Counted from the stretch's first letter, positions 2,778 to 64,000 are shown. The stretch is 64,000 nt of DNA from a candidate division WOR-3 bacterium (GCA_016867815.1 VGIR01000003.1:2495-66494), one strand, 5' to 3'. A program made the numbers and translations. Notes: generated by a model from the letters alone, not told the origin.

Positions 2778-2899
2778 CTGGAGGGTCTCGCTTTCCTGGG
2801 TACGGTTTTGCCTTTGCAGACTACTGCCCGCCGGGTCCGGTTCCAGTCACGGGCGCAGGCAGAGCGCGGGAAGTATAGCAGAAAGTAGGAAGTGGTCAA

Positions 2900-3142
2900 G
2901 AGGTCGAGAGGTCGAGGGATAGAGGGAGAGAGGGATAGAGGGATAGAGGGATAGAGGGATAGAGTGTTCGGACCCTTGGTTCTCTTCGTGATTTCGTGCT
3001 TTCGTGGCAGACTGGTCTGGGTTCTCCCGGTGCCTTGGTGTCTTGGTGGTTGAGTCGGCATGAGGGATCAAGGGATAGAGGGATCGAGGGAGAGAGGGAC
3101 AAAGGGATAGAGGGACAAAGGGATGGAGGGATAGAGGGATCG
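2900..3142. repeat. two arrays of 9-bp tandem repeat GGGATAGAG (about 7 and 9 units) flanking CTTCGTG and CTTGGTG heptamer mini-arrays
   Basis: gggatagagggagagagggatagagggatagagggatagag at 2919-2966 and gggatcaagggatagagggatcgagggagagagggacaaagggatagag... at 3062-3142. Confidence 0.95.
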
Positions 3143-3279
3143 CTGGGAAGGGTTCCAGGGTTCGAGGGGTCCAGTGGCCGACCCAGCCGGAGGTCGTGGA
3201 CCGGACATGCAGCCGGGTAACGATCCGTCGTTCATCGTTCTTGACCCCAGCGGTCCCTGTCGGACAGTGCGTTCATCGT

Positions 3280-9344: not shown

Positions 9345-9923
9345 ATGTCGAGACAGATGGAGATCGCATCCGAAGACGTCCTGGTGAGCCGCTCCGCACG
9401 GGGCGACGAACAGGCGTTTGGGGTGCTGGTTGAACGCTACAAAGGAATGCTGTACTCAATGTCACGTCGGTTGATGAAGGACCCGGGCAGGGCCGAGGAT
9501 GCGGCCCAGGAGTCCTTCATCAAGGCGTGGGCCGCCCTGCCCGGTTTCAAGGGTGAATCGAAGTTCTCGTCGTGGCTCTACCGTATATGCTACAACACGT
9601 GCATCAGCGAGTTGCGCAAACGCAAGCCCGAGGTCGAACTCGACGAGGCGACGGGCGTGCCGGTTGAGGGGCCGGCGCAGGACTTCCTGAACCGCAACAT
9701 CCAGGCCACGATCCAGGAAGAGGTTAGCAGGCTGCCGGACGACTATCGTGCCGCCGTGACCCTGTACCATTTCAGCGGCCTTTCCTACGAGGAGATTGCG
9801 AAGCTGACCCACAAGCCGATGGGCACGGTAAAAGCCCATATCCACCGGGCCCGGGCGGTGCTCAGGACGCGGCTGGTGGAGCGAATCGGCTGGGACAATT
9901 TGAAAGAGGTGATGTGGCAATGA
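9345..9923 (+). CDS. RNA polymerase ECF sigma-70 factor (sigma-24 family)
   Basis: 192 aa; sigma70 region 2 (LYSMSRRLMKDPGRAEDAAQESFIKAW) and region 4 helix-turn-helix (LSYEEIAKLTHKPMGTVKAHIHRAR). Confidence 0.85.
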   Translation: MSRQMEIASEDVLVSRSARGDEQAFGVLVERYKGMLYSMSRRLMKDPGRAEDAAQESFIKAWAALPGFKGESKFSSWLYRICYNTCISELRKRKPEVELDEATGVPVEGPAQDFLNRNIQATIQEEVSRLPDDYRAAVTLYHFSGLSYEEIAKLTHKPMGTVKAHIHRARAVLRTRLVERIGWDNLKEVMWQ

Positions 9924-10390
9924 ACTGCGTTGAAGTCAGACAGGCGGTCCAGGACTACGTGACCCGCGAACTCAGCATCGAGAACCGGCGGCTGTTCGAC
10001 GCCCATCTGGTCGAGTGCGGGGAGTGCCAGCGCGAACTGGCGTTGATGACGGCGCTCGTATCCACGCTTGACCATCAGCCGGTGCTCGAGCCACGACCGG
10101 GGTTTGGCGAGAAGGTGCTTTCATCGCTGCCGCGGCAGCGGAGTCTCGTTTTGAACCCGTGGTGGTCACTGGCGCTCGCGCCGGTACTGGGCGGCCTGGC
10201 GTGGTTGTTTCGGGTTCGGCTTGAGAGGGTGATCCTCGGCCTGGCCGGACAGCTCGGCATCCGGAGCATCAGCCTGCCCGCGCTCACCATGCAGAATGCC
10301 GGAATAGTCGCCGCAGCGGTGGTCGGGGTTGGCCTGCTTGTCACTGCTGGTGGTGCCTGGTTCTGCTGGCGCGTCTATCTCCAGGAATAG
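9914..10390 (+). CDS. anti-sigma factor, zf-HC2 zinc-finger type, membrane-anchored
   Basis: overlaps sigma stop (ATGGCAATGA); N-terminal HxxxC...CxxC motif (HLVECGECQRE); C-terminal TM helix. Confidence 0.7.
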   Translation: MAMNCVEVRQAVQDYVTRELSIENRRLFDAHLVECGECQRELALMTALVSTLDHQPVLEPRPGFGEKVLSSLPRQRSLVLNPWWSLALAPVLGGLAWLFRVRLERVILGLAGQLGIRSISLPALTMQNAGIVAAAVVGVGLLVTAGGAWFCWRVYLQE

Positions 10391-19408: not shown

Positions 19409-20089
19409 TCATGCGTCACGCGTCCCGCCGCAGGCCCGGACACACAGCCCGCAGATGTACTGGCTGACGTAGCGTTTGCTCTGGAACTCCTTGAGCATTG
19501 CGAAGCAGTCCAGATGCTTGAACTCGGTCTGAGTCTCACCGATGGCCTTGGCAGGGCAGGCCGTGATACAGGCACGGCACGAGCCACAACCGTTCTCAAG
19601 CGGGTGGTCGGGTTCGAGATCGAGGTCAGTCAGGATCGTTACCAGTCTGACTTGCGAGCCGAACCGCGGGGTGACAAGCAGGTTGTTGCGGCCGAGCCAG
19701 CCTAGCCCGGCTCCGACAGCGACACGCTTGTGCGACAGATGGCCCCGTTGGTTCTGCCAGTCAACGAGCTGAGATGCGGCGACGGGCAGCGCCAATGCTC
19801 CCAGGCTTTCAATCAGCGCGGCGAGGTCCAGCCCGAGCCGGTCCAGCGCGAAGTTGACCTGTCGGTAGTGGTGCTCGTATAGCTGGTTTGGATGGTCTTC
19901 GAGCGTTCCGAGAACTGCCGGGGACAAGTGTAGCGCGATGCTGATGGCATTCGGCAGGTCCCGAGTCGTCTTCTCCGGCAGGAGGAAGTCGTCGGTCTTG
20001 ATGTCATTGAGCCGGCAGACGCCGAAGCCAACCGCTCCCCGACTCTTGCACAGCTCCGCGAGTCCCTCTTTGGTCTCTTGTGGTATCAC
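19409..20089 (-). CDS. 4Fe-4S cluster protein, epoxyqueuosine reductase (QueG)-like C-terminal domain
   Basis: [16 protein letters not shown] and second Cys cluster CGLCVRACG; 226 aa is shorter than canonical QueG; overlaps mnmG by 4 nt. Confidence 0.55.
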
Positions 20090-22038
20090 TTGGGTCCCTT
20101 CAGGTAGGCGAGGAGCGCGAACACGGCTGCCGGCGTGATGCCCGTCATGCGCTGCGCCATACCAACTGAGGCGGGCCGATTGCGGGCCAGTCTCTCTCGG
20201 ACTTCGTTTGAAAGTCCGGGTACGCGACCGAAGTCGAGTCTCTCGGGGATCGCGATGGACTCCAGTTCTGCAAACTGACCGAGCTGGCGCTTCATCCGTT
20301 CGATGTAGCCCTCGTATTTCACCTCAAGCTCCACCAGTTCGACAACCTGGTTGCCGAACTGACCGCCATTCGCCATTTGGGCCAGGTCAGTCCATGTCAC
20401 TTCGGGTCTGCGCAGGAGCTCAATGGCTGGGACCGATTCGGCAATCGGCGTTGTGCCGAGCGCCTTGAGTTTCCTGTTGGCTCTGGGCGTGGCCCTGATA
20501 CGGGCCGAGGTGAGCCACTTCGTCGCCTCGTCACACTGGTGCTGTTTCTCCTGAATGCGGCTGTACTGCTTCCCCGTGAGCAGGCCGAGTTCGTATGCGC
20601 GCGGACCGAGGCGCAGGTCGGCGTTGTCTTCACGCAGGAGCAGGCGATACTCGACTCGGGCAGTGAACATCCGGTACGGCTCGTCCGTGCCCTTGGTGAC
20701 GAGGTCGTCAATCATCACCCCGATGTACGAGTCGGCGCGGGTCAGAACGAGTGGCGGTTTCTCCAGCACGCGCAGCGCGGCATTGGCGCCCGCGACAAGC
20801 CCCTGGGCCGCGGCTTCCTCGTACCCGGTGGTGCCGTTTATCTGTCCGGCAAAGTAGAGATTGCGGATGGGGCGGGTTTCGAGTGTAGGGTAGAGCTGGG
20901 TCGGGTCAGAATAGTCGTGCTCGATGGCGTAACCCGGCCTGAGCATCCGGCAATCCTCAAGCCCTTTGATAGAATGGAGCATCCGAAGCTGCAGGTGGAC
21001 CGGTAGGCTCGTCGAGATGCCGTTCGGGTAGCATTCGACCGTGTCCGTGCCTTCGGGTTCGATGAAGATGTGATGACGGTCGCGGTCAGAGAACTTCACG
21101 ACCTTGTCCTCAATGGATGGGCAGTACCTGACGCCTTGCCCCTTGATGACGCCCGAGTAGAGCGGAGACTGCTTCAGGCCCGCACGGACGATGCGGTGCG
21201 TAGTCGGGTTCGTATAGGTGACGTAGCAGCTTGTCTGGTTCTGCGGTGGAGCGTCGGTCCAGTCCGAGAACGGAACCGGCGGCTCATCACCATCCTGCCG
21301 GATCATAGCCTTCAGGTCCAGCGACCGCATGTCCAGCCGCGCCGGTGTACCGGTCTTGAACCGACCGATACTGAATCCCAGTTCGCGCAGGTTCGCGCCC
21401 AGCCTCTGTGCCGGCGCCTCGCCCAGGCGGCCGGCCGGAAAGCTGGTGAGCCCGATATGGACGAGACCGTTCAGGAACGTGCCCGGCGCGAGCACGACTG
21501 TCTTCGCCCGCAACTGCTCTCCCAGCTCCGTCTCGACCCCCACGCACGTCCTGCCCTTCACCAATACTCTCGCCACCGTGCCTTGGTGCAAAAGAGGTCT
21601 GCCCGCCCCTTTGGTTCGGTTCGTCCTTCTGTGTGTCTCCGGCGCTCTGGATTCTGGACTCTCGTCTCTGAATTCTGGACTATCCTCTCCCGATGTCCCT
21701 TCCAGCAGTTGCTTGACCAACCTGCGATACAGCTGTCTATCCACCTGCGCCCGCGACGACCGCACCGCCCGTCCCTTGCTCGTGTTCAGTTGGCGGAAGT
21801 GGATGCCGGCTCTGTCAGTCAGTTGCCCCATCGCACCGCCCATGGCGTCCAGTTCGCGCACCAGTTGTCCCTTGCCGATGCCGCCGACCGCGGGGTTGCA
21901 TGACATCAGGCCGATGGTGTCGAGGTTCTGGGTTACGAGCAGAGTCGAGCAGCCCATCCGGGCCGCGGCCAGCGTCGCCTCGACGCCGGCATGCCCGGCC
22001 CCGACTACTACCACGTCATACGTTTCCTGGTGCTTCAA
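20086..22038 (-). CDS. mnmG: tRNA uridine 5-carboxymethylaminomethyl modification enzyme MnmG (GidA)
   Basis: FAD-binding GAGHAGVEA, MnmG conserved blocks throughout; contains about 30-aa low-complexity insertion encoded by in-frame heptamer array at 21646-21688. Confidence 0.9.
21646..21688. repeat. TCTGGAC-type heptamer tandem array (6 units, 42 nt) in frame inside mnmG
   Basis: tctggattctggactctcgtctctgaattctggactatcctc encodes [14 protein letters not shown] on minus strand, absent from canonical MnmG. Confidence 0.8.
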
Positions 22039-22092
22039 GGTCGAGGTGATTCTAAGTGCTTGGGTGTCTGAGTCAACGCAGCCGCACGATAT
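21961..22092. repeat. reference copy: mnmG 5' end plus divergent promoter region (template of three downstream duplicate copies)
   Basis: ccagcgtcgcctcgacgccggcatgcccggccccgac... aligns with copies at 22848, 23730 and 26980. Confidence 0.85.
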
Positions 22093-22120
22093 TGACTTTC
22101 TCTACCAGCAAGTTACAGTG
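22093..22120 (+). promoter_or_regulatory. putative promoter of cassette 1 (TTGACT N16 TACAGT)
   Basis: atTTGACTttctctaccagcaagtTACAGTgactgcgagATG. Confidence 0.45.
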
Positions 22121-22128
22121 ACTGCGAG

Positions 22129-22449
22129 ATGACGTCCAAAGTCGGACAGGTGCTTGCCGAACTCCGCGCTAGACTGCGAGAGCTGTACGGCGAACGGCTG
22201 GTGAGGCTTGTGCTGTTCGGCTCGCAGGCACGCGGCGACGCCCGGCCGGATTCAGACATAGACGTAGTGGTCGTGCTTCGAGGAGACGTCGATGTCGAGG
22301 TGGAGCGGCGGCGTGTGCTGCCGATCACGGCTGAGTTGTCGCTGGAGCACAATGTCGTAATCCTTTGCGTGTACCTGTCGGAGCGTCGCTTCGGTCAGGA
22401 ACAGAGTCTGCTGCTCCGTAACGTTCGAACGGAAGGCATCGCGGTGTGA
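22129..22449 (+). CDS. nucleotidyltransferase (MNT-type antitoxin of HEPN/MNT module)
   Basis: GS...D...D motif LFGSQARGDARPDSDIDV typical of minimal nucleotidyltransferases. Confidence 0.75.
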   Translation: MTSKVGQVLAELRARLRELYGERLVRLVLFGSQARGDARPDSDIDVVVVLRGDVDVEVERRRVLPITAELSLEHNVVILCVYLSERRFGQEQSLLLRNVRTEGIAV

Positions 22450-22841
22450 ACGAACAGCAGAGAGCGCTGCTGGCGAAGGCGCGTGAGAGCCTGGACGTTG
22501 CCCGCGAGATTGACGCTCGCGGGAGCCATGGATTTGCCGCGTCGCGTGCCTACTACGCCATGTTCTACGTGGTCGAAGCGCTGCTGCTCGACGACGGGCT
22601 TGAGTATGGCAGTCACTCGGCGCTCATCGCTGCCTTCGGCGAGAGATTCCAGAAACCAGGTCGTGTCCCCGCGGGTTTCCATCGGATGTTGCTGGACGCG
22701 GCGGAATGTCGGCAACTCGGTGACTACGAGGTCAACGTTGAGGTCAGCGCAGGCATGGCGGGCGAGCAGATAGCGAACGCTCAGCGGTTCGTCGACCTCG
22801 CGCAGGGAATGCTCGGCTCGTCAACCGAGAACGCGCGCTAG
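22446..22841 (+). CDS. HEPN domain protein (toxin partner of MNT)
   Basis: 4-nt overlap with MNT gene; 131 aa helical protein with Rx4-6H-like HEPN signature region. Confidence 0.7.
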   Translation: MNEQQRALLAKARESLDVAREIDARGSHGFAASRAYYAMFYVVEALLLDDGLEYGSHSALIAAFGERFQKPGRVPAGFHRMLLDAAECRQLGDYEVNVEVSAGMAGEQIANAQRFVDLAQGMLGSSTENAR

Positions 22842-22847
22842 AACGGG

Positions 22848-22975
22848 CCAGCGCCGCCTCGACGCCGGCATGCCCGGCCCCGACCACGATCACGTCATAT
22901 GCCTGCTGCATCGTCCCGCTGATTCTAGATGTTCAGACATGCGAGTCAAACCGGCGACGGCGGAGACGCCCAAGG
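22848..22975. repeat. degenerate duplicate copy 1 of mnmG promoter + first ~26 codons
   Basis: reverse strand encodes [22 protein letters not shown] preceded by TTGACT N16 TAGAAT, matching the mnmG start region. Confidence 0.85.
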
Positions 22976-23001
22976 CCCCAAGTGTCTCCGGCGGCCTTCG
23001 C

Positions 23002-23029
23002 TTTGACTTGACTCCATGACGCAGTATGA
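23002..23029 (+). promoter_or_regulatory. putative promoter of cassette 2 (TTGACT N16 TATGAT)
   Basis: tTTGACTtgactccatgacgcagTATGATgtcc. Confidence 0.5.
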
Positions 23030-23044
23030 TGTCCGCAGCGAATC

Positions 23045-23323
23045 ATGATAGCCAAGAAGGACCGAGACACGATTGCCGAGGTCGCACGCGAGTACGGCGC
23101 GGCCAAGGTCGTGCTGTTCGGCTCGGCAACCTCCGAAGACCGCGAACCAAACGACATCGACTTGGGCGTCAAGGGGATCGAGTCGAGGCTCTTCTTCCGG
23201 TTCTATGGCGAGTTGATGATGCGCCTATCCAAGCCCGTAGACGTCATTGATCTTTCGGTCCGTTCCCGATTCGTGGAGCTGGTCGAGCGCGACGGCGTTG
23301 TGCTATATGCCTCAACTTCGTGA
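23045..23323 (+). CDS. nucleotidyltransferase (MntA-like antitoxin)
   Basis: LFGSATSEDREPNDIDLGV motif. Confidence 0.7.
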   Translation: MIAKKDRDTIAEVAREYGAAKVVLFGSATSEDREPNDIDLGVKGIESRLFFRFYGELMMRLSKPVDVIDLSVRSRFVELVERDGVVLYASTS

Positions 23324-23729
23324 GCGTCTACTGGCCGAAAAGGAGAACGTCGAGCTTGCGCTGACCAATCTCAGTTGTGCGATGGCGCGCACGGACCGGA
23401 CAGTCGTGGAGTTGACGGCTGCGGCGAGCTTCATCAGCAGCGTCTACAACGGAATAGAGAACATGCTGAAGCAGATACTCGCAGACCGCTCAATTGACAT
23501 ACCAAAGTCCGGCATGTGGCATCAGGAGTTGCTCAAACGCTCCGTCGCTGCTGAGGTCGTTTCGCCCGAGCTGGCGCAGGAGCTCAAGGAGTACCTGGGC
23601 TTCCGTCACTTCTTTGTCCATGGCTACGGTTTCATGGTGACCGAGTCGCCTCTTCAGGACTTGGCTTCGCGGCTGCCCGACGTCTGGGCGCGGTTCATGT
23701 CCGAGATCGGCCACGCCCTGGGCGACTAG
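23307..23729 (+). CDS. HepT-like HEPN toxin (DUF86-like)
   Basis: overlaps MNT stop; C-terminal RHFFVHGYG resembles HepT Rx4-6H motif; start chosen at ATG 23307 rather than track start 23247. Confidence 0.6.
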   Translation: MPQLRERLLAEKENVELALTNLSCAMARTDRTVVELTAAASFISSVYNGIENMLKQILADRSIDIPKSGMWHQELLKRSVAAEVVSPELAQELKEYLGFRHFFVHGYGFMVTESPLQDLASRLPDVWARFMSEIGHALGD

Positions 23730-23845
23730 CCAGCGCCGCCTCGACGCCGGCATGTCCGGCCCCGACCACAATCACATCACACGTCTGCTCGCGCTTCATT
23801 GTCCCGCTGATTCTAGGTATTCACAGGCCTGAGTCAAACCGCCGC
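23730..23845. repeat. degenerate duplicate copy 2 of mnmG promoter + 5' codons
   Basis: reverse strand encodes [24 protein letters not shown]. Confidence 0.85.
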
Positions 23846-23850
23846 TCAGC

Positions 23851-23879
23851 TTGACTTTGGTGGGAGTCGGATGCACAAT
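23851..23879 (+). promoter_or_regulatory. putative promoter of cassette 3 (TTGACT N17 CACAAT)
   Basis: cTTGACTttggtgggagtcggatgCACAATgcc. Confidence 0.45.
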
Positions 23880-23935
23880 GCCACGTGGAGACACGTGAAG
23901 CCGCTACCGACCTCTGGAGGGAGAACGACTACACG

Positions 23936-24733
23936 ATGGCCGCCGTTGCCTACTTTGACATGTTCGGCTTCTCTGTCTACCTGCGGAGGAGCGACACGAA
24001 GATCCGCGACGTGCTGACTTGGCTTGATGAGCTGGACCGAGAGACGGACGAGGGGCTCAAACGACGCCACTGCGCATCACAACTCAAGTCGGCTGTCTTC
24101 TCAGACTGCATGGTACGTGCTCTTCCGGTAGGTATCAGCGCGGCAACTTCTGTAGAAACGCTCCTGCTGGATGCTATCCGTGTTCAGAGGCGGTTGACTG
24201 CCACCGTGTGGACACGAAAGGACCAGGAGTTTCATCGGCCTGAGCTTCCGGTGCGAGGCGGCATCAATGTCGGGCAGCTCTACTGGGGCGGACGGCACGT
24301 CTTTGGAGAAGCGCTCGTGGAGGCCGTTGACCTTGAGAAGAAGATGGCGGTCTGGCCGCGCGTGGTCGTGGACCTCGACGTTGAGCTGGACCAGGTTGAT
24401 GAGTGGAGGTACCCGCCGGGTTTCACCGACTTCTTCGCTTGTGGAATTGACGGGTTTCCGCTGCTTCTAGAAGACAACGGGGTCAGATATCTGAACTACC
24501 TCGCGCCTATACAGACGGAGTTTGGCGAGTGGAGTGACATGCAGTTCTACAACAAGTACCTGCGCGACCACAAGTCACTGATCCTCAAGTTCCGTGAATC
24601 CGTCCAGAGGTCCAGCCAGATGATGTGCATCGAGGGCTGGGCGGAGTATCACAACTCTGTCGTGCGACACCTCAAAGAAGACAGACATGCGTCGAGCTAC
24701 TTGAGCAAGAAGGAGCTACTCGTCGATCTGTGA
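23936..24733 (+). CDS. class III nucleotidyl-cyclase-homology-domain protein with unknown C-terminal domain (candidate signalling cyclase)
   Basis: motif order AVAYFDMFGFS (FxDxxGF[ST]), about 45 aa later VFSDCMV (xGDxxM-like), then RGGINVGQLYWGG (RIGIHxGxVxxG-like) reproduces the spacing of adenylyl/guanylyl cyclase catalytic domains; start moved to ATG 23936 because track start 23885 abuts the -10 box. Confidence 0.5.
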   Translation: MAAVAYFDMFGFSVYLRRSDTKIRDVLTWLDELDRETDEGLKRRHCASQLKSAVFSDCMVRALPVGISAATSVETLLLDAIRVQRRLTATVWTRKDQEFHRPELPVRGGINVGQLYWGGRHVFGEALVEAVDLEKKMAVWPRVVVDLDVELDQVDEWRYPPGFTDFFACGIDGFPLLLEDNGVRYLNYLAPIQTEFGEWSDMQFYNKYLRDHKSLILKFRESVQRSSQMMCIEGWAEYHNSVVRHLKEDRHASSYLSKKELLVDL

Positions 24734-24753
24734 AAGAGGAAGGGAGCAAGCAT

Positions 24754-25827
24754 ATGAGGACTGCGTATCTGGCTGTGATAGCCGTGACAGCGCTGCTGGC
24801 GCTGCTTTCCTGCGACCAACAAGCCGAGCACGCCGGCCTATTCCCGGTGAGGGTCAGTGGGAAGTGGGGCTACATCGACAAGAGCGGCGCGATGGTCATC
24901 GACACCCTGTTTGATGAAGCGAGGGACTTCTCCGATGGCCTGGCGTTGGTACGCAAGGGCGGCAAGTATGACTACATAGACGTTACTGGCAAGCTGGTAA
25001 CCGATCTGCAGTTCGAGAACTGCTACTACTCGGACTTTACTGACGGGCTAGCGGCCGTCATTGTGTCCGTCTCGGACAGCCTCCATCAGTCGCAAACATG
25101 TGGCTACATTGACAAGACGGGCAGCCTTGCCATCGACACTGTGTTCTTGTACGGCCACCCTTTCACTGAGGGTTATGCAGCGGTGCTTGTCGACCAGTCC
25201 CTGTGGAGGTGGGGGTACATAGACAAGACCGGCAGGTTCGTCATAGCCGCGCAGTTCAGTGGCGCGGAGTCCTTCTCCGAGGGGCTGGCTGCCGTACTCG
25301 TCGGCGGGTGGAGCGACGGCAGGTATGGCTTCATCGACAAGACAGGCAGGCTCGTCATCAACCCTCAGTTCAGCCAAGTTGGCGATTTCTCCGAGGGCTT
25401 CGCGCCGGTTTGCGTCGCCGTTGGCGACTCCTTCAAGTGGGGCTTTGTCGGCAAGACCGGAAAGCTAGTCATCGATCCGCAGTTCGGGTACGCGTTTCCT
25501 TTCTCTGAGGGCTTGGCCGCGGTGATTGTCGGCGACTACAATACGGGGAAGGGCGGTTTCATCGACAAGACGGGCAAGCTCGTCGTCAGCCCGCAGTTTG
25601 ACTTCTATGGGAATGTCCCCGGTCCATACTCTGAGGGTCTCGCGGCAGTGATGGTCGGCGGACTATGGGGCTACATTGACCAAGCTGGAAGGTACGTGGT
25701 GAACCCTCAGTTCCTCGAAGCCCAGCCTTTTTCCGGTGGACTGGCGCGGGTCTGTACGGACTGGAGCGGGCCTACGCTCGGCTACATAGACAAGACGGGG
25801 AAGTACGTGTGGACGCCGACGAAGTAG
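24754..25827 (+). CDS. WG-repeat (KWGYIDKSG) lipoprotein
   Basis: lipobox LLALLSC; about 9 repeats of [KR]WGYIDKTG...F..A..FSEGLA. Confidence 0.7.
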   Translation: MRTAYLAVIAVTALLALLSCDQQAEHAGLFPVRVSGKWGYIDKSGAMVIDTLFDEARDFSDGLALVRKGGKYDYIDVTGKLVTDLQFENCYYSDFTDGLAAVIVSVSDSLHQSQTCGYIDKTGSLAIDTVFLYGHPFTEGYAAVLVDQSLWRWGYIDKTGRFVIAAQFSGAESFSEGLAAVLVGGWSDGRYGFIDKTGRLVINPQFSQVGDFSEGFAPVCVAVGDSFKWGFVGKTGKLVIDPQFGYAFPFSEGLAAVIVGDYNTGKGGFIDKTGKLVVSPQFDFYGNVPGPYSEGLAAVMVGGLWGYIDQAGRYVVNPQFLEAQPFSGGLARVCTDWSGPTLGYIDKTGKYVWTPTK

Positions 25828-26012
25828 GGCAAGATGGCTCCCAGCGCTAGTGCAGGCGGCGTCACTGGCTGAGATGGGCGGCCCAATGCATCCATGGTGC
25901 TCGCACCTGAGCGGAGTCTTCAACCGGTCGGTTATGGCTGAGGACCGTAGGCAGAAGCGCTGGACGTGAGTCTGTCGCTCCGAGACTTGAATGCCCTCGA
26001 CGGACGCCAAGC

Positions 26013-26930
26013 ATGAGCAAGGTGTTTGCGGAGACATCAACTCCGCCGGTTGCTGGTAAAGCCGTGTGCTGTGTCATTGGTCCAGTGGGCGACCCTGGCA
26101 CGCCCGTCCGCCTGCGTGCCGACTTGGTCTTCGAGCGAATCTTCTCGCCTGCTGCGGATCATTGCGGGTTCTCCGCGTGGCGCGCGGACCGCAGCGTTCT
26201 CCCCGGTCGCATACCTGACGAAGTGCTCCACCACCTGTATGACGACCCCGTCGTGATAGCAGACCTGACGGGGAACAACGGCAGTGTGGCCTACGAACTT
26301 GCAGTCCGCGACTTCTACGGCAAGCCGACCGTTGCTGTCATCGACGAGGGACAGCGCATTCCGTTCTACCAGTCTCAAGTCCGCGTGATCAGGATCAGTC
26401 ATCTGACTGAAGAGGCGATCGAGCGTAGCGTTGCCTCCGTCTCAGCATCGATTGGTGACGCAGTGCGTGCCGCTGTCGTGGCAGACAGCCCGTTCGCAGA
26501 GGCGGTCAGGCTGCGCGACACCCGGCTGAGCGGAGCCGAGGCCAAAGGCGTGTACCTCTATTGCGTAGACCTCGACCTTCATCGCCAGATTCGGGATTTT
26601 CTTGCAGGCCACGGGGTGGCGATTGTCGCGAGGGATGAGCGGCAGGGTCGATTGGGGGGCACTCCAGCGCTGATGCGTGAGATTTGCTGCCAGGCGGCCG
26701 CGGCCGTTGTCGTAATGCGCCGCGACGCGAGAGGTCAGCCGCTGTCTGACACTGACTACGTGCTGGGGGCGGCACAGGCAGCATTCGGCATGGACCGCGT
26801 GATCGCCATGCTGGAGGTGGGCGCAGGATGGCAGGGCCACCTCGCTGGGTACTGGCATGGCTTCCGCAGAGACCCGCTCGACCTCAGCAGCCTCAGGCTT
26901 CGCCTGCTGGAGATGGGACTGGTGAAGTGA
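26013..26930 (+). CDS. hypothetical protein with two tandem nucleoside 2-deoxyribosyltransferase-like (NDT/TIR-like Rossmann) repeats
   Basis: N-half VIADLTGNNGSVAYELAVRDFYGKPTVAVID resembles NDT signature (D..G.n.G...E.G.A...GKP); C-half DYVLGAAQAAFGMDRVIAM is a degenerate second copy lacking the Glu. Confidence 0.5.
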   Translation: MSKVFAETSTPPVAGKAVCCVIGPVGDPGTPVRLRADLVFERIFSPAADHCGFSAWRADRSVLPGRIPDEVLHHLYDDPVVIADLTGNNGSVAYELAVRDFYGKPTVAVIDEGQRIPFYQSQVRVIRISHLTEEAIERSVASVSASIGDAVRAAVVADSPFAEAVRLRDTRLSGAEAKGVYLYCVDLDLHRQIRDFLAGHGVAIVARDERQGRLGGTPALMREICCQAAAAVVVMRRDARGQPLSDTDYVLGAAQAAFGMDRVIAMLEVGAGWQGHLAGYWHGFRRDPLDLSSLRLRLLEMGLVK

Positions 26931-26979
26931 GGCGGGCCATCCGGTCGCCCGCCGCTATCGTTCGTTCGTTAGCGACTCA

Positions 26980-27095
26980 CCGCGCCGCTTCGACGCCGGC
27001 ATGCCCGGCCCCGACGACAATCACATCATACGTCTGCTTGCGCTTCATGGACTCGCTGATTCTAGGAGTTCGCAGGCCTGATTCAGACCGCCGCG
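26980..27095. repeat. degenerate duplicate copy 3 of mnmG promoter + 5' codons (possibly the ancestral pre-insertion copy)
   Basis: reverse strand encodes [22 protein letters not shown]; closest to copy 2. Confidence 0.8.
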
Positions 27096-27099
27096 CGGC

Positions 27100-27128
27100 T
27101 TGACTTCTCGGAGAATCTGATTCACAAT
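27100..27128 (+). promoter_or_regulatory. putative promoter (TTGACT N17 CACAAT)
   Basis: cTTGACTtctcggagaatctgattCACAATgcc; the track ATG at 27127 lies inside the -10 box. Confidence 0.4.
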
Positions 27129-27237
27129 GCCGAGTGGCAAGATGCTACGCTTCTTCCGGCTGCTGGTCTGTGCCAGAGTCGGAAATGTGCGAATGGCGGG
27201 CATCCCACACTGCCGCAACCGTGGGAGGCGCCAGACG

Positions 27238-27645
27238 ATGAGACGCGTATACAGATTGAACGGTGCACAGGTGGGAGTCCTCTGCGGAATCACGGCAGTA
27301 GTGTCATTCCTGATAATCTGGGGTGGTACCGGGTCTACGCAGTTCTACAAGTATCAGACTGAGGACGACGTGTGGACAGCAACCGTTCTCGCCAGCTCCG
27401 TCGGTGGCTTCAAGGGGTTGTGGGACTCGGGGACCCGCAACTACTGCACGTATCTCGACTGTAGCGACGGACAGACACGCAAGTTCTACCTCACGCGCTC
27501 CATCAACCATTACTTTCTGGATTCCGAGAAGCACCCTCTTGAACGAATCGCGCTTGTGGTCGTGCTGGTTGGAGTCATGCTCATCTACACGCTGGGATGG
27601 GCAGTCCAACGCAGACTGCGGGATGACTCAGTTGTTGCTAGGTGA
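27238..27645 (+). CDS. hypothetical small membrane protein (start uncertain; track start 27127 rejected)
   Basis: two TM helices; alternative starts 27142/27193. Confidence 0.4.
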   Translation: MRRVYRLNGAQVGVLCGITAVVSFLIIWGGTGSTQFYKYQTEDDVWTATVLASSVGGFKGLWDSGTRNYCTYLDCSDGQTRKFYLTRSINHYFLDSEKHPLERIALVVVLVGVMLIYTLGWAVQRRLRDDSVVAR

Positions 27646-27671
27646 AGCGTGTTATCAAGGAGGCAGTTCCT

Positions 27672-28199
27672 ATGAAGTCACGTCACAGCGGCCCGGCTAT
27701 TCTGGTGCTGGTTCTTGTATCGCTGGCGGGAGGGCAGAGCCTAACGGAGGTACTGACCGTGGAGGTCGAAGGACAGACCTATGGCGCGGCGTGGCTCGGT
27801 CCGGGTGCTTTTGGCGGCGTGACGGGCCTCGTCTCGACTGGGCAGACCAAGATATGGAAGGGATTTCGGGGCGGCCTGCCTGTATCCGAGGCCGAGTTCT
27901 ACCGCACGGCTGGCTACAACGACATCGCGGAGAAGGCCGAGTCGAGAAAGGGCACAAGCGACTGCCTGACGTGGGGCGGACTCGGCACATGCATTGCAGG
28001 ACTCGCATTGCTGGTCGTAGCCGCCGTCAAGGTGGGTGAATCGGGTGAGGGTCAGCCGGGCCTAGCTATCGCCGGAGTGGGCGGCGCTCTCGGAGGACTG
28101 ACCGTGGAGTTGATAGGTGTCTCGATGCGGGGTCATCTGACGCCAGCCAGCTTCGCGGTCCGCGTCGCCGAGGAATACAACGATCGCCTCAGGCGGTAG
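27672..28199 (+). CDS. hypothetical secreted/membrane glycine-rich protein
   Basis: signal peptide AILVLVLVSLAGG, Gly-rich C-terminal TM segments. Confidence 0.45.
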   Translation: MKSRHSGPAILVLVLVSLAGGQSLTEVLTVEVEGQTYGAAWLGPGAFGGVTGLVSTGQTKIWKGFRGGLPVSEAEFYRTAGYNDIAEKAESRKGTSDCLTWGGLGTCIAGLALLVVAAVKVGESGEGQPGLAIAGVGGALGGLTVELIGVSMRGHLTPASFAVRVAEEYNDRLRR

Positions 28200-28215
28200 G
28201 TAGGCTGGACTGGCA

Positions 28216-28836
28216 ATGACCTCAGACACCGGGTACTGGCTCTGCAGTGCCGTCGCGCAGTCCTTTGCTGCCCTAACCGCGCTGACCGGCCTCTTCGCAG
28301 TGTACAAGCTGCAGACGCTTCGAGGGAACAAAGAGGGTATCCTCTATCGGTTCTTGATCGAACTCGAGAAGACCCGTGCAGAGCTCAACAGACTCGCGCA
28401 GGGTGTTGCGCGTCAGTGGATCGACTCGGTCCCCGATGCCGTTGTTCCCATCACGGGTGAGCACGGATGGAAACAAGTCGTGAAGTCCTACCGGGACGAG
28501 TATGAGGTCCGCCTCGGCGAGGTGGCTAGGGGATGCGGGCCGTCTAATGAGGAGCAGTGGGTCAGCAACAGGCGGGAGTTCTTCAGCGAGTTGATCCGGC
28601 AGCATGACAACACAACCAACCAGCAGAACGGCTGCAGCAAATGGGCGAAGGCAATGACGCTGGCTGACGGAATTATCACCTTGTTCTCGCTTGTCCTGAT
28701 CCTGGGAGTGCCCTATCTTGGGTCTACGCTGCCCGTCAGCTTGGTCGTGCTGCTTGTTCTTGCGGGCTTCGCTCTCGGACTGACTCTCTTCGCGTGTGTG
28801 AAGATACTTGCCATCGGAGAGTTGACGGACTCGTGA
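28216..28836 (+). CDS. hypothetical membrane protein
   Basis: N-terminal TM, soluble middle, two C-terminal TM helices. Confidence 0.5.
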   Translation: MTSDTGYWLCSAVAQSFAALTALTGLFAVYKLQTLRGNKEGILYRFLIELEKTRAELNRLAQGVARQWIDSVPDAVVPITGEHGWKQVVKSYRDEYEVRLGEVARGCGPSNEEQWVSNRREFFSELIRQHDNTTNQQNGCSKWAKAMTLADGIITLFSLVLILGVPYLGSTLPVSLVVLLVLAGFALGLTLFACVKILAIGELTDS

Positions 28837-29048
28837 CCAGGTAGCCACCAGTTCCGCTGCTGCCCGACTTCACACGCTGCACGCAGCTCAGTTGCCAGTG
28901 GTCCGATTGCGCCCCGGATCTCTGGTGACACCCGGGCGGGCACCGCGCTTGGGGATGTTGTTCTCGGAGAGCGATGACCAATTCTGCGAGCCGGTGGAGG
29001 AGAGCCTGGTCGATGTGCGGTTGCTGGTGACCGTTCAGGTTTTCCGCC

Positions 29049-29110
29049 CAAGCGCAAGCTCAAGCACAAGCCGGGCAAGAGCCGCAAGCCTCAAGCCACA
29101 AGCTTCAAGC
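29049..29110. repeat. CAAGCC-type heptamer tandem array
   Basis: caagcgcaagctcaagcacaagccgggcaagagccgcaagcctcaagccacaagcttcaagc. Confidence 0.9.
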
Positions 29111-29164
29111 TATCCGGAAGGTCGTTCTCGTCGAGTGACGTCGGGCTCTGGAAAGCATCGAGCA

Positions 29165-29465
29165 AGCGACTCTCCCGACAGCTCTCCGAGTAGTCCTCCC
29201 AACTCCCCTCCGAATTGCCCGGCGGGCTGCTTTCCGGATTATCTGCTGAGCTACTCTCCGGACAAACTGCGGAGCAGTCCGCGGAACTGCCTTCCCCGCA
29301 GTTCGCCGAGGAGCTCGCCGAGTTCCTCTCCGGATAGCTCTCCGAGTAGCTGACCGAATAGCTGTCCGGGCAGTTCTCCAGATTTCCTTCCGGATAGCCT
29401 GCGGAGCAACCTGCCGGACTGCTTTCCGGGCAGCTTGCCGAACTGCCTCCCGAACAACCTGGGGG
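29165..29465. repeat. degenerate 12-bp minisatellite (consensus CCGGAnAGCTnT, about 25 units), locus 1
   Basis: ccggatagctct ccgagtagctga ccgaatagctgt ccgggcagttct ... read directly. Confidence 0.9.
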
Positions 29466-29600
29466 GCGGGGTAGGGGAGGAGAGTGAATGCCCAATAACC
29501 AATTACTAATGAAGAAGTTAGAACAACTCGGGACTTGCCTCCAGGAGGACATATAGGAAACTGGACGCGTGCGACCGGCCTCAAGTGAGGGGCCGGTTTC
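29466..29600. repeat. conserved ~130-bp flank of the 12-bp minisatellite (second copy at 57489-57640)
   Basis: gggaggagagtgaatgcccaataaccaattactaatgaagaagttagaacaactcgggacttgcctccaggaggacatataggaaactgg is about 75% identical to 57489-57600. Confidence 0.8.
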
Positions 29601-29653
29601 GATGCACGGACCAGGCTGTCAGGTCCGAGCGTCAGGACGCCGGCGAGGCGCGG

Positions 29654-29682
29654 TGCTTGCCAGCGGGGGAGAGGTGACTAGA
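29654..29682 (+). promoter_or_regulatory. putative xylA promoter (TTGCCA N16 TAGAAT) followed by RBS AAGGAG
   Basis: gcTTGCCAgcgggggagaggtgacTAGAATgag ... cctAAGGAGtcgtaaccATG. Confidence 0.45.
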
Positions 29683-29720
29683 ATGAGCACTGGTACAAAG
29701 CCTCCTAAGGAGTCGTAACC

Positions 29721-30920
29721 ATGCCTCTTCTTGATCTCCGGCCGCAAGCAGTGCGCAGGACGCCCGCACAAATGGTCGAACACCTGAAGTCATTCAACCT
29801 CGACCTGAAGTTCTCTGCCGGGATCTGGTTCTTCTCGCCGTCGGAAAGCCGGTTCCATAAGAAGCATGGGCCTGACCTCTCGATCGAGCAGCGGCTGGAG
29901 ATTGCGCGGGGACTGAAGGAGTACGGTCTCGCCGGGCTGGAGGCGCACTACCCGAACGAGATCAACGAGGAGAATGAGAAGCTGTGGCGCGACTTCTGTG
30001 CCGACTCCGGCATGCGGCTGGTGACGGTTGTGCCGCTCCTATTCCGCAGTCCCAAGTTCGAGTTCGGTTCGCTCTCCAGCCCGTTGCCCGAAGCGCGCAA
30101 GGCAGCGATTGAAGTCACGCGGCGCGCGTTTGAGATGAACTGCCGGATGGATACCGATTTCTGCGTTGTCTGGCCCGGGATTGATGGGTATGAGAATCCG
30201 TTTGGCATGGACTTCGCCGCGATGCGCGACCGGTTCGCGGACGGCCTGGCCGAAGCTATGGACTGCGTGCCCGGGGTGCGGGTCGCGTTCGAGCCCAAGC
30301 CGTACGAGCCGCGCGGCCGAATCATCTTCGGTACGACGCCGGAGGGGCTGCTGCTCTGCCACATGGTAGAGGAGAGGCTGCAGAACCCGGAGAACCGGCG
30401 GCTCTTGGTCGAAGGCCATGCGCTCGTCGGGATGAATCCCGAGGTGGGGCATGCGCTGATGGCGTATGAAGACCTGCCGTACGCGTATAGCTGGCCACTA
30501 TCCGAAGGCAGGCTCTGTCACATGCACCTGAACAGCCAACCGCTCGGCAACTTCGACCAGGACCTGAACGTGGGGACTGTGGCGCCGGAACAGATTGAAG
30601 CGCTGCTCTATGTGCTGAAGATGCACGGCTATCAAGGCTGGTTCGGCATCGACATCAATCCCGAGCGCATGCCGGTGGACATGGGCCTGCGCATCTCGAT
30701 GGACGCGCTGCGCGCCGCCAATGACAGGATCACTGATCTTGACCACGAGTCAGTGGTCTTCGCAGTCAACCACCCGGACAAGGCGAGAGGGTGGCTTGAG
30801 GGATACCTCGTGCGCGCAAGGGCTCCACATCCGGAACGCCTGGCGCAGCTTCTACCCGTCGGGCCACAAGCCTCAAGCCACAAGCCGCAAGCTTCGGACC
30901 GGACGGGAGGATCGGAATGA
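29721..30920 (+). CDS. xylA: xylose isomerase (class I)
   Basis: AFEPKPYEPRG, NPEVGHALMA, HMHLNSQ...DQDL match XylA catalytic/metal-binding blocks; C-terminal about 15 aa are translated heptamer array. Confidence 0.75.
   Translation: MPLLDLRPQAVRRTPAQMVEHLKSFNLDLKFSAGIWFFSPSESRFHKKHGPDLSIEQRLEIARGLKEYGLAGLEAHYPNEINEENEKLWRDFCADSGMRLVTVVPLLFRSPKFEFGSLSSPLPEARKAAIEVTRRAFEMNCRMDTDFCVVWPGIDGYENPFGMDFAAMRDRFADGLAEAMDCVPGVRVAFEPKPYEPRGRIIFGTTPEGLLLCHMVEERLQNPENRRLLVEGHALVGMNPEVGHALMAYEDLPYAYSWPLSEGRLCHMHLNSQPLGNFDQDLNVGTVAPEQIEALLYVLKMHGYQGWFGIDINPERMPVDMGLRISMDALRAANDRITDLDHESVVFAVNHPDKARGWLEGYLVRARAPHPERLAQLLPVGPQASSHKPQASDRTGGSE
30863..30895. repeat. CAAGCC heptamer array at xylA 3' end
   Basis: ccacaagcctcaagccacaagccgcaagcttcgg. 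Confidence 0.9.
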
Positions 30921-31273
30921 GGAAGGTGGACGACTACGAAGTATTCAAGCGTGCACATCAACTGACTCTCGACATCTATCGGCTGACGAAGCGCTTTCCC
31001 AAGGACGAGCTGTACTGCCTCACCTCGCAGATGAGGCGCGCTGCATACTCGATACCCACCAACTTGAAGGAAGGCAGCACTGGGACCGAAACGGAGTTCT
31101 TTAGATACGTCCGAATCAGCCTGGGCAGCAAGGAGGAGCTTGCCTATCAGGTTCGGCTCGCCCGCGACCTGGGATACACCTCTGAGATAGACGCTAGGAA
31201 GCTGTCGTCAGAGATCAGCGAGATCGGCGGCATGCTGTTCGGTCTGCTCCGCAAGCGGGGGACCGGAGCTTGA
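30917..31273 (+). CDS. four-helix-bundle protein (23S rRNA intervening-sequence protein family)
   Basis: 118 aa; YEVFKRAHQLTLDIYRLTKRFPK...LYCLTSQMRRAAYSIPTNLKEG... characteristic of TIGR02436-type proteins. Confidence 0.75.
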   Translation: MRKVDDYEVFKRAHQLTLDIYRLTKRFPKDELYCLTSQMRRAAYSIPTNLKEGSTGTETEFFRYVRISLGSKEELAYQVRLARDLGYTSEIDARKLSSEISEIGGMLFGLLRKRGTGA

Positions 31274-57194: not shown

Positions 57195-57488
57195 CTACCG
57201 GACAGCTTTCTGAATAGCTCGGGACATTGGTCTCCGGATTGCCTGGCAGGTTGCTCTCTGGGCTCGCTTCCGGGCGATTCGCCCGGCAGCCTGTGGAGCT
57301 ATCCGCGGGGCAGTTCTGCCCGGAGCTCTCCGGGCAGTTCGCCCTGCTCCTATCCGGACAGCCTTCCGAATAGCTGACCGAACAGCAGTCCGGATAGCTC
57401 TCCGGATTCCTCACCGGATAGCCTGCGGAGCAGTCTCCCGAACTGCTCGCGGGGCAGCCTCGAGAACAGCTCGCAGAATAGCCTGGGG
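57195..57488. repeat. degenerate 12-bp minisatellite, locus 2 (same family and orientation as 29165-29465)
   Basis: ccggacagcttt ctgaatagctcg ... ccggatagctct ccggattcctca ccggatagcctg. Confidence 0.9.
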
Positions 57489-57640
57489 GACGGGACAGGG
57501 GAGAAAGGAGAATGACGAATAACTAATTGCTAATGGGGAAGTTAGGAAACCGGAAGGCTCGACCGGAGGAGGACATATAGGAAACTGGGAGGGTGCGGCC
57601 AGCCTCAAATGGGGTGTCGGATTGCGCCTGCTTCCGAAGG
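57489..57640. repeat. conserved flank, locus 2
   Basis: gggagaaaggagaatgacgaataactaattgctaatggggaagttaggaaaccgg...ggaggacatataggaaactgg. Confidence 0.8.
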
Positions 57641-58772: not shown

Positions 58773-58886
58773 GCGTCCACATCCGGCACTGCGAAAAGCG
58801 AGCCGCGAGTCCTGCCGGAATGGTTGACCGGCAAGGAGAGGGGGCTATCATATTACTCTCTGGAAGAGTACCAAAGGAGCAAAGCG

Positions 58887-62716: not shown

Positions 62717-62876
62717 GTCCGGCCCGGGGTTCTCTGGTTCGATGCGTCGCTCGCGGAGCACCCGAACCAGCGCGTGGTCTGCGGCCCTTCGCGGCAGGTC
62801 CGGGCCGTCCACCATTGACCCACGGGCTCGCGAAGTTATCATTGTTGGTCTGTTACCACATGCAAAAGGAGTATAA

Positions 62877-64000
62877 GTGAGAAAGTGGCTCGTATTGCTG
62901 GTTCTGATATCGGTTCCGCTGCTGGCCGGTACGGTTACCCGAACGGCAAGCTTCGACAGTGATGATCTGATCTTCTCCACGTATGGCGGGTTCGACAATG
63001 TCGAGCTGCGCGGCGGGACCGGGCTGCTCCAGGTCGGAGCGCCGCGCGTTCCGCTGGCCGTCCAGCGCGTGCTGGTCCCGGCCGGCGCCGTTCCGACAGG
63101 GGTCGAACTCGTGTCCGCAGACTGGACCACGATTCCCGGACGCTACAACCTGGCGCCGGCCCAGCCGGACGTGCCGCTGGCGATGCCGGGCAAGGTCTTC
63201 GACCTGCCCGAGCAGGCACAGGACCAGGCGATCTACTCGGCCAACACCTTCTATCCATCCAGTTGCCTGCGGCTGGGGGAGCCAGCGACGCTGGCCGGGT
63301 ACCGGATGGCGTCGGTGGAATTGCGGCCGGTACGGGTGAACCCGGTTTCGGGCGAGCTGCAACTCGCGACGCGCATCGAGTACCGGATCAGTTACGATGC
63401 CGGCAACAGCGATGCTTTCGTGCCGTCGCAGGAGCAGCGCGACTACTACTCCGCTATGGTGCGGGAGATGGTCGTCAATGACAACGATGTCAACCGCTTC
63501 GCGCCCTCGGTCCGCCGTTCGGCCACGCTCTCACTACCGTCCGGTAACTACGTGTACGTAGTCATCAGCGCACCACCGCTGGACACGTGCTTCGCCAGAC
63601 TGACCGCCTGGAAGACCCTGAAGGGTGTGCCGGCCACGACCGTTCTGCTTTCCTACATCACTGCGAACTACTCCGGCTACGATACGCAGGAGAAGATCCG
63701 CAACTTCATTAAGGACGCGTACCAGACCTGGGGCACCCGCTACGTGCTGCTGGGTGGCTCTGCCGACCACAAGACCAGCGGGCAGAACATCATTCCGACG
63801 CGCGACTGCTGGTACACGACCCTGGGCATCGGGTACTACAATGACGAGGATACGATTCCCTGCGATCTCTACTACGGTGGGCTCGACGGCACGTGGGATG
63901 CGGACAACGACCACGTCTATGGCGAGACGGGAGACCAGGCCGATATGCTGAGCGAGGTGTTCGTCGGCCGGGCGCCGGTGTACAACGTGGCCAAGGCCCA
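62877..64000 (+). CDS. second peptidase C25 (gingipain-family) paralogue, 3' end outside window
   Basis: RBS AAAGGAG then GTG 62877; N-terminal 370 aa collinear with 58887 gene (e.g. ATLSLPSGNYVYVVI, KIRNFIKDA, IIPTR, CDLYYGGLDGTWD, VFVGRAPVYNVA); not in ORF track because no stop in window. Confidence 0.75.
   Translation, partial: MRKWLVLLVLISVPLLAGTVTRTASFDSDDLIFSTYGGFDNVELRGGTGLLQVGAPRVPLAVQRVLVPAGAVPTGVELVSADWTTIPGRYNLAPAQPDVPLAMPGKVFDLPEQAQDQAIYSANTFYPSSCLRLGEPATLAGYRMASVELRPVRVNPVSGELQLATRIEYRISYDAGNSDAFVPSQEQRDYYSAMVREMVVNDNDVNRFAPSVRRSATLSLPSGNYVYVVISAPPLDTCFARLTAWKTLKGVPATTVLLSYITANYSGYDTQEKIRNFIKDAYQTWGTRYVLLGGSADHKTSGQNIIPTRDCWYTTLGIGYYNDEDTIPCDLYYGGLDGTWDADNDHVYGETGDQADMLSEVFVGRAPVYNVAKA

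Follow-up and report, generated by a model that had tools for sequence, protein, structure and literature searches.

At the 5' end of mnmG, one clade of candidate division WOR-3 bacteria carries what is, judged from sequence comparison, a lineage-specific array of small self-promoted modules, mostly type II toxin-antitoxin (TA) pairs, bounded by direct repeats of the mnmG start. The array was analyzed in a 64,000-nt stretch from a candidate division WOR-3 bacterium (GCA_016867815.1, VGIR01000003.1:2495-66494; locus tags FJY68_), hereafter the window, and in contigs and loci of relatives (L001, L002 … L166) that were compared with it. The mnmG protein of the window matches those of candidate division WOR-3 genomes, L001–L007 included, at 75%–85% amino acid identity. 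As the process behind the array we tentatively favor, at a confidence somewhat short of probable, homologous recombination within the repeated unit, with the cassettes stabilized by TA addiction and no dedicated recombinase needed; site-specific integration ranks behind this process in likelihood.

Four diverged copies of the mnmG start

A direct-repeat search of the window recovered a four-member family with starts at 21968, 22847, 23729, and 26978 (spacings of 879, 882, and 3249 nt), and an nhmmer profile built from the four copies matched 21969–22082 (E = 8e-33), 22848–22956 (E = 7e-30), 23730–23844 (E = 4e-34), and 26980–27093 (E = 6e-34), with no fifth match anywhere in the 64 kb. The four segments can be aligned without difficulty, in agreement with a first-pass annotation, made from the sequence alone, that had identified four copies of the mnmG start; the pseudo-N-terminal peptides also read as written there. 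No other gene with a duplicated 5' end was found by the repeat search of the window. Each unit, approximately 115–135 nt long, includes minus-strand mnmG sequence from about codon 24 back to the start codon, then the mnmG promoter, and extends to a divergent promoter on the plus strand. Between copies, identity in pairs is 67%–84% over the whole unit, 81%–88% in the 72-nt coding part, and 52%–80% in the promoter part, so that the divergence first claimed stands, with values slightly lower than the proposed 75%–85%. Most copies share a nearly invariant 37-nt core, which, read by eye from the sequence, holds an imperfect 11-5-11 inverted repeat.

Promoter-like sequence is concentrated in the array: a scan of 21900–29800 returned 11 sigma-70-like sites where 1.5 were expected. 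On the minus strand, TTGACT and TAGAAT separated by 16 nt occur in copies 1, 2, and 3, whereas the −35 box of copy 4 is degenerate (TCTGAA), and the earlier statement that every copy keeps the mnmG promoter therefore applies to the first three copies and not to the fourth. The plus-strand promoter claimed for each of the four copies was recovered throughout, with TTGACT followed after 16 or 17 nt by TACAGT, TATGAT, CACAAT, and CACAAT downstream of copies 1–4, respectively. Because start codons lie only 9–13 nt past the −10 box, mnmG and the cassette operons all appear to be leaderless.

Copy 1 (21968–22100) is the working unit and contains mnmG codons 1–24, the minus-strand promoter (TTGACT at 22076 to TAGAAT at 22049), and the beginning of the divergent one; its allele, with a TTG start, is referred to as type A. 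The other three copies are displaced. Copy 2 (22847–22975) encodes a pseudo-N-terminus with an in-frame 6-nt deletion beside an intact minus-strand promoter (22949–22922). Copy 3 (23729–23917) has both a minus-strand promoter (23837–23810) and a plus-strand promoter (23851–23879), and its promoter and leader are shared, copies 3 and 4 being 79% identical across 185 nt. Copy 4 (26978–27166), with the degenerate −35 box, has its plus-strand promoter at 27100–27128 and a leader in common with L072 and L087, and is probably the lineage's original mnmG 5' end. The promoter-plus-leader TTGACTTC...CACAATGCCG.GTGGCAAGATGCT is conserved after the last mnmG copy in several genomes (window 27100–27146, L072 at approximately 2310–2356, L087 at approximately 640–1200) and is present in duplicate in L087; the divergent transcript of the locus may ancestrally have started here.

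Repeat-bounded modules across the clade

Cassettes 1 and 2 of the window are, by family matches, adjacent small-gene pairs of type II TA families, as the HEPN/MNT modules of the first-pass annotation had anticipated. Cassette 1 (22092–22846, plus strand) consists of a promoter (22092–22119), a predicted MNT nucleotidyltransferase antitoxin (22129–22449; Pfam NTP_transf_2, 2.5e-13), and a predicted HEPN toxin (22446–22841; Pfam HEPN, 2.1e-10), with homologs in L072, L073, L079, and L087. Cassette 2 (23003–23728, plus strand) likewise has a promoter (23003–23030), followed by an MNT gene (23045–23323; Pfam Polbeta, 2.6e-8) and a gene for a HepT-like toxin (23307–23729; Pfam HepT-like_2, 8e-17).

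The surroundings of the array are conserved. Downstream of mnmG, all close relatives are syntenic (queG-like, patatin/Omp85, and radical-SAM genes), and upstream a xylose-isomerase-like gene and xylB are present wherever the contigs of relatives extend far enough. The distance between these conserved flanks is 0.8 kb in L086, an empty site, 2–5.6 kb in L002, L071, L082, L083, and L094, and 7.7 kb in the window. Copies were counted in the 30 clade contigs that reach 1 kb or more upstream of mnmG. Of these, 12 have two to three repeat copies, corresponding to approximately 11 distinct arrays including that of the window; a thirteenth contig outside this count, L075, has two copies though only 840 nt upstream are available. 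Repeats are spaced 471–1395 nt apart in relatives (471–3249 nt with the window included), giving cassettes of 0.47–3.2 kb. Extra copies were found only in this WOR-3 clade, a second 5'-end copy being absent from all more distant mnmG loci tested.

All cassette genes of the window and of the other repeat-bounded arrays are transcribed away from mnmG, and recognizable TA components occur in 8 of 11 distinct repeat-bounded units. In relatives, the content between repeats comprises MNT/HEPN, MNT+MNT (in part with HEPN), HicA/HicB in both gene orders (L074, L075), MNT/HepT (L081), DUF2283, an aspartyl protease, and an 85-amino-acid protein. A displaced copy was searched for after the MNT/HepT pair of L005, and none was found. 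In L088, a homolog of HEPN1 (38% identity) lies at 9791–10162 between two conserved genes downstream of mnmG. Given this other intergenic site, TA insertions in the clade would not be confined to the mnmG 5' end.

Cassette turnover and replacement of the working 5' end

Cassette order and ancestry differ between genomes. Relatives of cassette 2 occupy the first position in L005/L094, L078, L084, and L132, and in L132 the MNT1 cassette comes after the cassette 2 relative, the reverse of the order in the window. The MNT1 genes of L076, L079, and L087 are 87%–91% identical, versus 75%–78% for their mnmG, and the opposite holds for the window, L072, and L087, with 84%–86% for mnmG versus 79%–80% for MNT1. 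The MNT1 tree conflicts with the mnmG tree, which indicates that at least one cassette gene was transferred between lineages.

The mnmG start itself has also been exchanged. The 5' end comes in two forms, type A beginning with TTG and type B with ATG. In the window and in L001, mnmG itself uses type A, whereas L006, L072, and L076 carry this form as a displaced copy. The working 5' segment of the window is only 67%–76% identical to that of any relative, or to any other copy, whereas the adjoining 300 nt of the mnmG body are 84%–88% identical. Displaced copies 3 and 4, conversely, are 81%–83% identical to the 5' ends in use in relatives, with copy 4 at 82%–83% to the nearest relatives. The working 5' end thus looks foreign and copy 4 native, from which we infer that the gene start was replaced and that older starts were pushed outwards, as the first-pass annotation had proposed. 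Because content and order vary, the MNT1 and mnmG trees conflict, the working 5' end looks foreign, and copy 4 looks native, both cassette turnover and 5'-end replacement are supported, and the locus, with zero to two repeat-bounded cassettes in relatives, behaves as the insertion hotspot first suggested rather than as a fixed vertical locus.

Such a fixed history, in which an ancient, vertically inherited array was eroded by differential loss between repeats without new insertions, is very improbable in our assessment. It would accommodate cassette proteins that are diverged between genomes (79%–90%) about as much as mnmG, the fixation of the array in the sampled population, and the lack of any within-array copy pair above 88% identity. 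It is contradicted, however, by the reversed order of L132 relative to the window, the incongruent trees, the swapping of types A and B between working and displaced positions inside one subclade, and the empty site of L086. All of the events are old, since no copy pair across arrays exceeds 88%–89% identity, near-duplicate contigs aside, consistent with the earlier view that the copies are not recent duplications.

Metagenome assemblies can mis-join repeats, and an assembly artifact in which strain variants of the mnmG start were chimerically joined would also be in keeping with two short contigs that end exactly at a cassette/copy junction. However, the 7-kb array is 100% identical to the window in at least eight independent assemblies from different runs (Logan, JGI), over up to 20 kb, its copies differ by 16%–33%, the exact match between copies 2 and 3 ends after 26 nt, and analogous arrays occur in approximately 10 other assemblies, so we give an artifact next to no credence. 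The two short contigs, L155 and L159, come from two assemblies, both cover 22308/9–23727/8, and end at the junction of cassette 2 and copy 3; these ends may mark a co-occurring strain with another arrangement, or merely low coverage.

Junctions and the mode of insertion

Under the favored reading, homologous recombination, the repeat would act as portable homology for incoming DNA. DNA carrying a cassette beside one or two repeat copies, whether circularized from another array or received as a linear piece from a relative, would enter by RecA-type recombination inside the repeat. Entry into a single-copy genome would take place through a double crossover, one exchange falling in the gene body and one in the repeat, or through a single crossover of a looped-out circle, and both routes yield exactly the structure observed. 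mnmG would thereby receive a new, sometimes hybrid, 5' end and the older copy would be shifted outwards, and recombination between adjacent repeats would delete cassettes. TA cassettes are proposed to accumulate and dominate because losing them kills the cell, so that their deletion is resisted, and a deletion bias would trim the remainder to units running from promoter to stop codon. In chromosomal integrons, TA cassettes stabilize arrays against deletion.

Junctions between cassettes and copies are variable. The left edges of displaced copies span columns −86 to +27: −86 in L075, where 53 mnmG codons are kept; −11 to −16 in L074_2, L079_2, L132_2, and a fragment in L002; 0–5 in copies 2, 3, and 4 of the window and in L006_2, L072_2, L074_3, and L076_2; and +23 or +27 in L002_2 and L081_2. 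A single HEPN1 cassette end (TAGAAC or TAAAAC) meets the copy at a different column in each of three genomes, those of the window, L072, and L079. The MNT1/HEPN1 cassette is flanked by types A and B in the window and by B and A in L072, with the switch near the −10 box in one case and far to the left in the other, and the part of the copy that travels with the cassette begins near the −10 box. L074 and L080 have cassettes 1–2 in common but part ways midway through copy 3. A protease gene interrupts a displaced copy in L002, and in L078 modules are joined without intervening copies and two MNT genes are fused into a chimera. Variable edges, crossovers, and joins of this kind do not match a fixed-site recombinase; general homologous and illegitimate recombination, which together describe what is at work in the region, account for them no less well than a dedicated recombinase would.

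Several points weigh against homologous recombination as the main process. Repeats of approximately 115–135 nt at 67%–88% identity, with an almost invariant core of only 37 nt, are a poor RecA substrate, and the first duplication of each junction still requires an illegitimate event. Within the population there is no variation, in that all public contigs with the cassette proteins of the window are 100% identical to it, and excision or insertion polymorphism is lacking. For 9 of the 12 junction types, the stop codon that closes the last gene is 0–8 nt away from the point where mnmG-like sequence begins, regardless of which part of mnmG that is, and the stop is TAG in seven and CTAG in five of these nine; stop-abutting junctions of this kind look more like a defined element end than like random trimming. 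Junctions also cluster at columns 0–5 and −11 to −16 in unrelated cassettes (HEPN1, HicB, DUF2283, HepT), and the 11-5-11 inverted repeat of the core could be a recombinase site. Finally, the negative recombinase searches described below are confined to islands and the scanned open reading frames (ORFs) of the window.

Alternatively, small non-autonomous cassettes could be moved by a site-specific (tyrosine or serine) recombinase acting in trans, whose gene would lie at another place in the genome or on an element present only transiently, with its core site in the conserved mnmG-coding block. A cassette circle carrying an mnmG 5' mimic and promoter would then restore the gene and displace the old 5' end. 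We regard this explanation as possible, if rather unlikely. In its favor are the uniform orientation and compactness of the cassettes, the stop codons abutting the repeat, the recurrent junction columns in unrelated cassettes, the nearly invariant core with its inverted repeat, and the collinearity of copy, spacer, and MNT2 between copy 2 of the window and the working copies of L078 and L132. Replacement of a 5' end is likewise as described for islands that target dusA (PMC4482086).

Recombinases were sought with Pfam in the cassette region and 20 further window ORFs of 118–434 amino acids, and no such family was found, in line with the earlier statement that the region lacks an integrase or recombinase. 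Nor was an integrase, recombinase, or phage gene present among the 20 largest distinct island proteins from approximately 22 loci of relatives, which are surface proteins, a TonB-type receptor, glnA, and others, and no integrase-bearing element occupies the mnmG site in approximately 45 clade contigs. Two pattern scans for an mnmG mimic on IMG/VR viral contigs gave 0 and 5 matches, the latter all chance matches of 20–27 nt. Single-stranded DNA folds of the four copies, on both strands, showed no attC-like structure (z-scores of −1.25 to +1.36), with only a 5-bp hairpin in common. These negatives count against a trans-acting recombinase, as do the same cassette end at three columns, the varying crossover points, the spread of left edges, and the lack of polymorphism within the population, and the term site-specific in the first-pass annotation is accordingly not upheld by our analysis.

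TA pairs are often carried by integrative elements, and the cassettes might instead be the last remnants of full-size, integrase-bearing elements (prophages or islands) that integrated serially at mnmG and then decayed, with the TA genes kept by addiction. Tycheposon islands exemplify such a history, elements there having integrated serially at tRNA sites and then decayed (bioRxiv 10.1101/2020.12.28.424599). This history is improbable, however, as no intact or fragmentary integrase or phage gene was seen in any island protein scanned, and cassettes cut back at one end to within a few nucleotides of a stop codon and at the other to a promoter would have called for many independent precise deletions.

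Remaining cassettes, flanking genes, and other features

The left flank, mnmG (20086–22038, minus strand; Pfam GIDA), encodes 650 amino acids from a TTG start, its first approximately 24 codons lying within copy 1. Public gene calls place the start 8 codons later (642 amino acids; window 22014–22038); we favor the TTG at 22038, which agrees better with relatives in the alignment and with the location of the −10 box and makes the mRNA near-leaderless. In the clade, mnmG has a variable low-complexity insert (window 21560–21700, residues approximately 113–155), with 650 amino acids in the window versus 688–708 in L002, L005, and L006.

Cassette 3 (23885–26930, plus strand) encodes a 282-amino-acid protein (23885–24733), a WG-repeat lipoprotein (24754–25827; Pfam WG_beta_rep, 8.5e-86), and a 305-amino-acid protein (26013–26930), and is collinear with L166 as far as 26930. 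On its function, Pfam, PADLOC, a PDB sequence search, and homolog searches yielded almost nothing. Neither the 282- nor the 305-amino-acid protein has a Pfam match; the former also lacks a PADLOC match, has an unusable AlphaFold model (predicted local distance difference test score of 38.7), and owes its sole label to a UniRef name ('Guanylate cyclase...'), and the latter has one faint PADLOC match to a TIR effector (E 0.003). The nucleotide-signaling module of the first-pass annotation is for these reasons barely supported and amounts to a guess, the 282-amino-acid protein having neither a family match nor a usable model beside its UniRef name.

What may be termed cassette 4 (27238–28966, plus strand) contains three small ORFs (27238–27645, 27672–28199, and 28216–28836) with no family match. 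Its right end has no mnmG copy, and a 336-amino-acid gene takes its place in L166. It is followed by a conserved spacer (28967–29720) with a low-complexity repeat (29091–29552) and the promoter of the xylose-isomerase-like gene (29657–29684), so that the variable region ends at approximately 28966, or at 29720 if the spacer is counted, and not at 29110 as first drawn. The low-complexity repeat has a 72% identical 300-nt paralog 28 kb away (57232–57531), and homologous sequence adjoins the same gene in L083 and L166.

The xylose-isomerase-like TIM-barrel gene (29721–30920, plus strand; Pfam AP_endonuc_2) forms the right flank and adjoins the island in L002, L071, L082, L083, L086, and L094 at 85%–91% amino acid identity. 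Between it and xylB lies a 118-amino-acid gene of the 23S-rRNA-intervening-sequence/bAvd-like family (window 30917–31273), which the window, L083, L094, and L166 have and L002, L071, and L086 lack, a second small presence/absence polymorphism beside the array.

Elsewhere in the window, an 8-nt unit (AGGGATAG and variants) is repeated in tandem in two blocks of an intergenic stretch at 2875–3166, and the starts of two neighboring large genes (58824–59976 and 62853–63999) are 71%–73% identical paralogs. The window contains no tRNA or transfer-messenger RNA (tmRNA) gene, and a replication origin was considered and rejected, there being no cluster of DnaA boxes.

Comparison with known systems

The closest parallel for the exchanged gene start is found in dusA. 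Islands and prophages with dusA-associated integrases insert in the first codons of this tRNA-modification gene; the gene then reads from a promoter and 5' end brought in by the element, while the displaced original start persists at the element's opposite end, so that imperfect direct repeats bracket the insertion (Farrugia et al. 2015, PMC4482086). They measure tens of kb (48.3 kb in one deleted example), always have their own tyrosine integrase beside the site, and use a fixed 21-bp att core (PMC4482086). The mnmG array is similar in its replaced 5' end and promoter and in the retention of the old 5' end as a remnant; in contrast, its units are 0.5–3 kb and several stand in tandem, the repeats are approximately 115–135 nt, the junctions are variable, and there is no integrase. 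Insertion of SXT/R391 at the 5' end of prfC is similar to the dusA case.

Units flanked by att sites and without an integrase, the cis-mobilizable elements (CIMEs), are found beside integrative and conjugative elements in streptococci. In the tycheposon islands of Prochlorococcus, which target tRNA genes and have integrases, new arrivals push older ones outward and fragments of the target gene lie dispersed across the island (bioRxiv 10.1101/2020.12.28.424599). Outward displacement, partial target copies, and, for CIMEs, the lack of an own integrase are shared with the mnmG array. Tycheposons and CIMEs differ, however, in that they lie at tRNA or tmRNA genes or at gene 3' ends, with integrase-bearing members at the same site in relatives, and none were found at mnmG in approximately 45 clade contigs.

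Chromosomal integrons consist of co-oriented cassettes of 1–3 genes, frequently TA, divided by a repeated site of approximately 60–140 nt near which the ORFs end. The mnmG array resembles them in its co-oriented short cassettes split by a repeated site, but has no intI (mnmG adjoins the insertion point) and no attC-like hairpin, its repeat is a host gene start with promoters, and its cassettes are self-promoted. The minimal mobile elements of Neisseria reportedly occupy hot spots between two conserved genes, are exchanged by transformation and homologous recombination, and have no mobility genes of their own. The conserved flanks here (mnmG-queG-patatin on one side, the xylose-isomerase-like gene and xylB on the other), the differing content of 0.8–7.7 kb, and the absence of detected mobility genes are alike; unlike minimal mobile elements, which need no internal repeats, the units at mnmG are separated by duplicated 5' ends of one flank, which permit stacking.

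Xer-dependent modules, such as the pdif modules of Acinetobacter plasmids and the arrays of integrative mobile elements exploiting Xer (IMEX) at dif, are small, often carry TA genes, are bounded by short sites, and integrate serially at one site with a host recombinase encoded elsewhere. The mnmG units are likewise small, often TA, bounded by repeats, and stacked at one site. Their repeat has no evident resemblance to dif, lies in a coding region, and is direct in all copies rather than alternating. Xer modules are bordered by dif-like 11-6-11 XerC/XerD sites, and the mnmG core holds the imperfect 11-5-11 inverted repeat noted above. A text search of the literature returned no paper linking mnmG to an integration site of this kind, nor an element class described as targeting the mnmG 5' end, and the first-pass annotation was likewise aware of none. 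Accretion of elements in tandem at a gene end is a known process, and what we judge to be new is that here, in WOR-3, it apparently proceeds with no recombinase and with a gene start plus promoter serving as the repeat.

Implications

An integron-like gene-capture platform new in WOR-3, in which a recombinase encoded away from the array recognizes the conserved mnmG start and cassettes carry a mimic of that start with a two-way promoter as recombination site, is in our view doubtful. Were it true, each insertion would re-create a working mnmG and give the cassette its own promoter, and the attachment site would be a piece of a housekeeping gene rather than a structured attC. If, on the other hand, recombination in a duplicated gene start suffices, integron-like arrays can arise without a dedicated enzyme, and TA addiction would explain which cassettes survive; if a trans-acting recombinase is involved, the array would represent a new cassette platform in an uncultivated phylum. 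Either way, repeated, diverged 5' ends of one conserved gene provide a marker for finding such arrays, and a tRNA-modification gene can have its start and promoter exchanged time and again while itself being retained.

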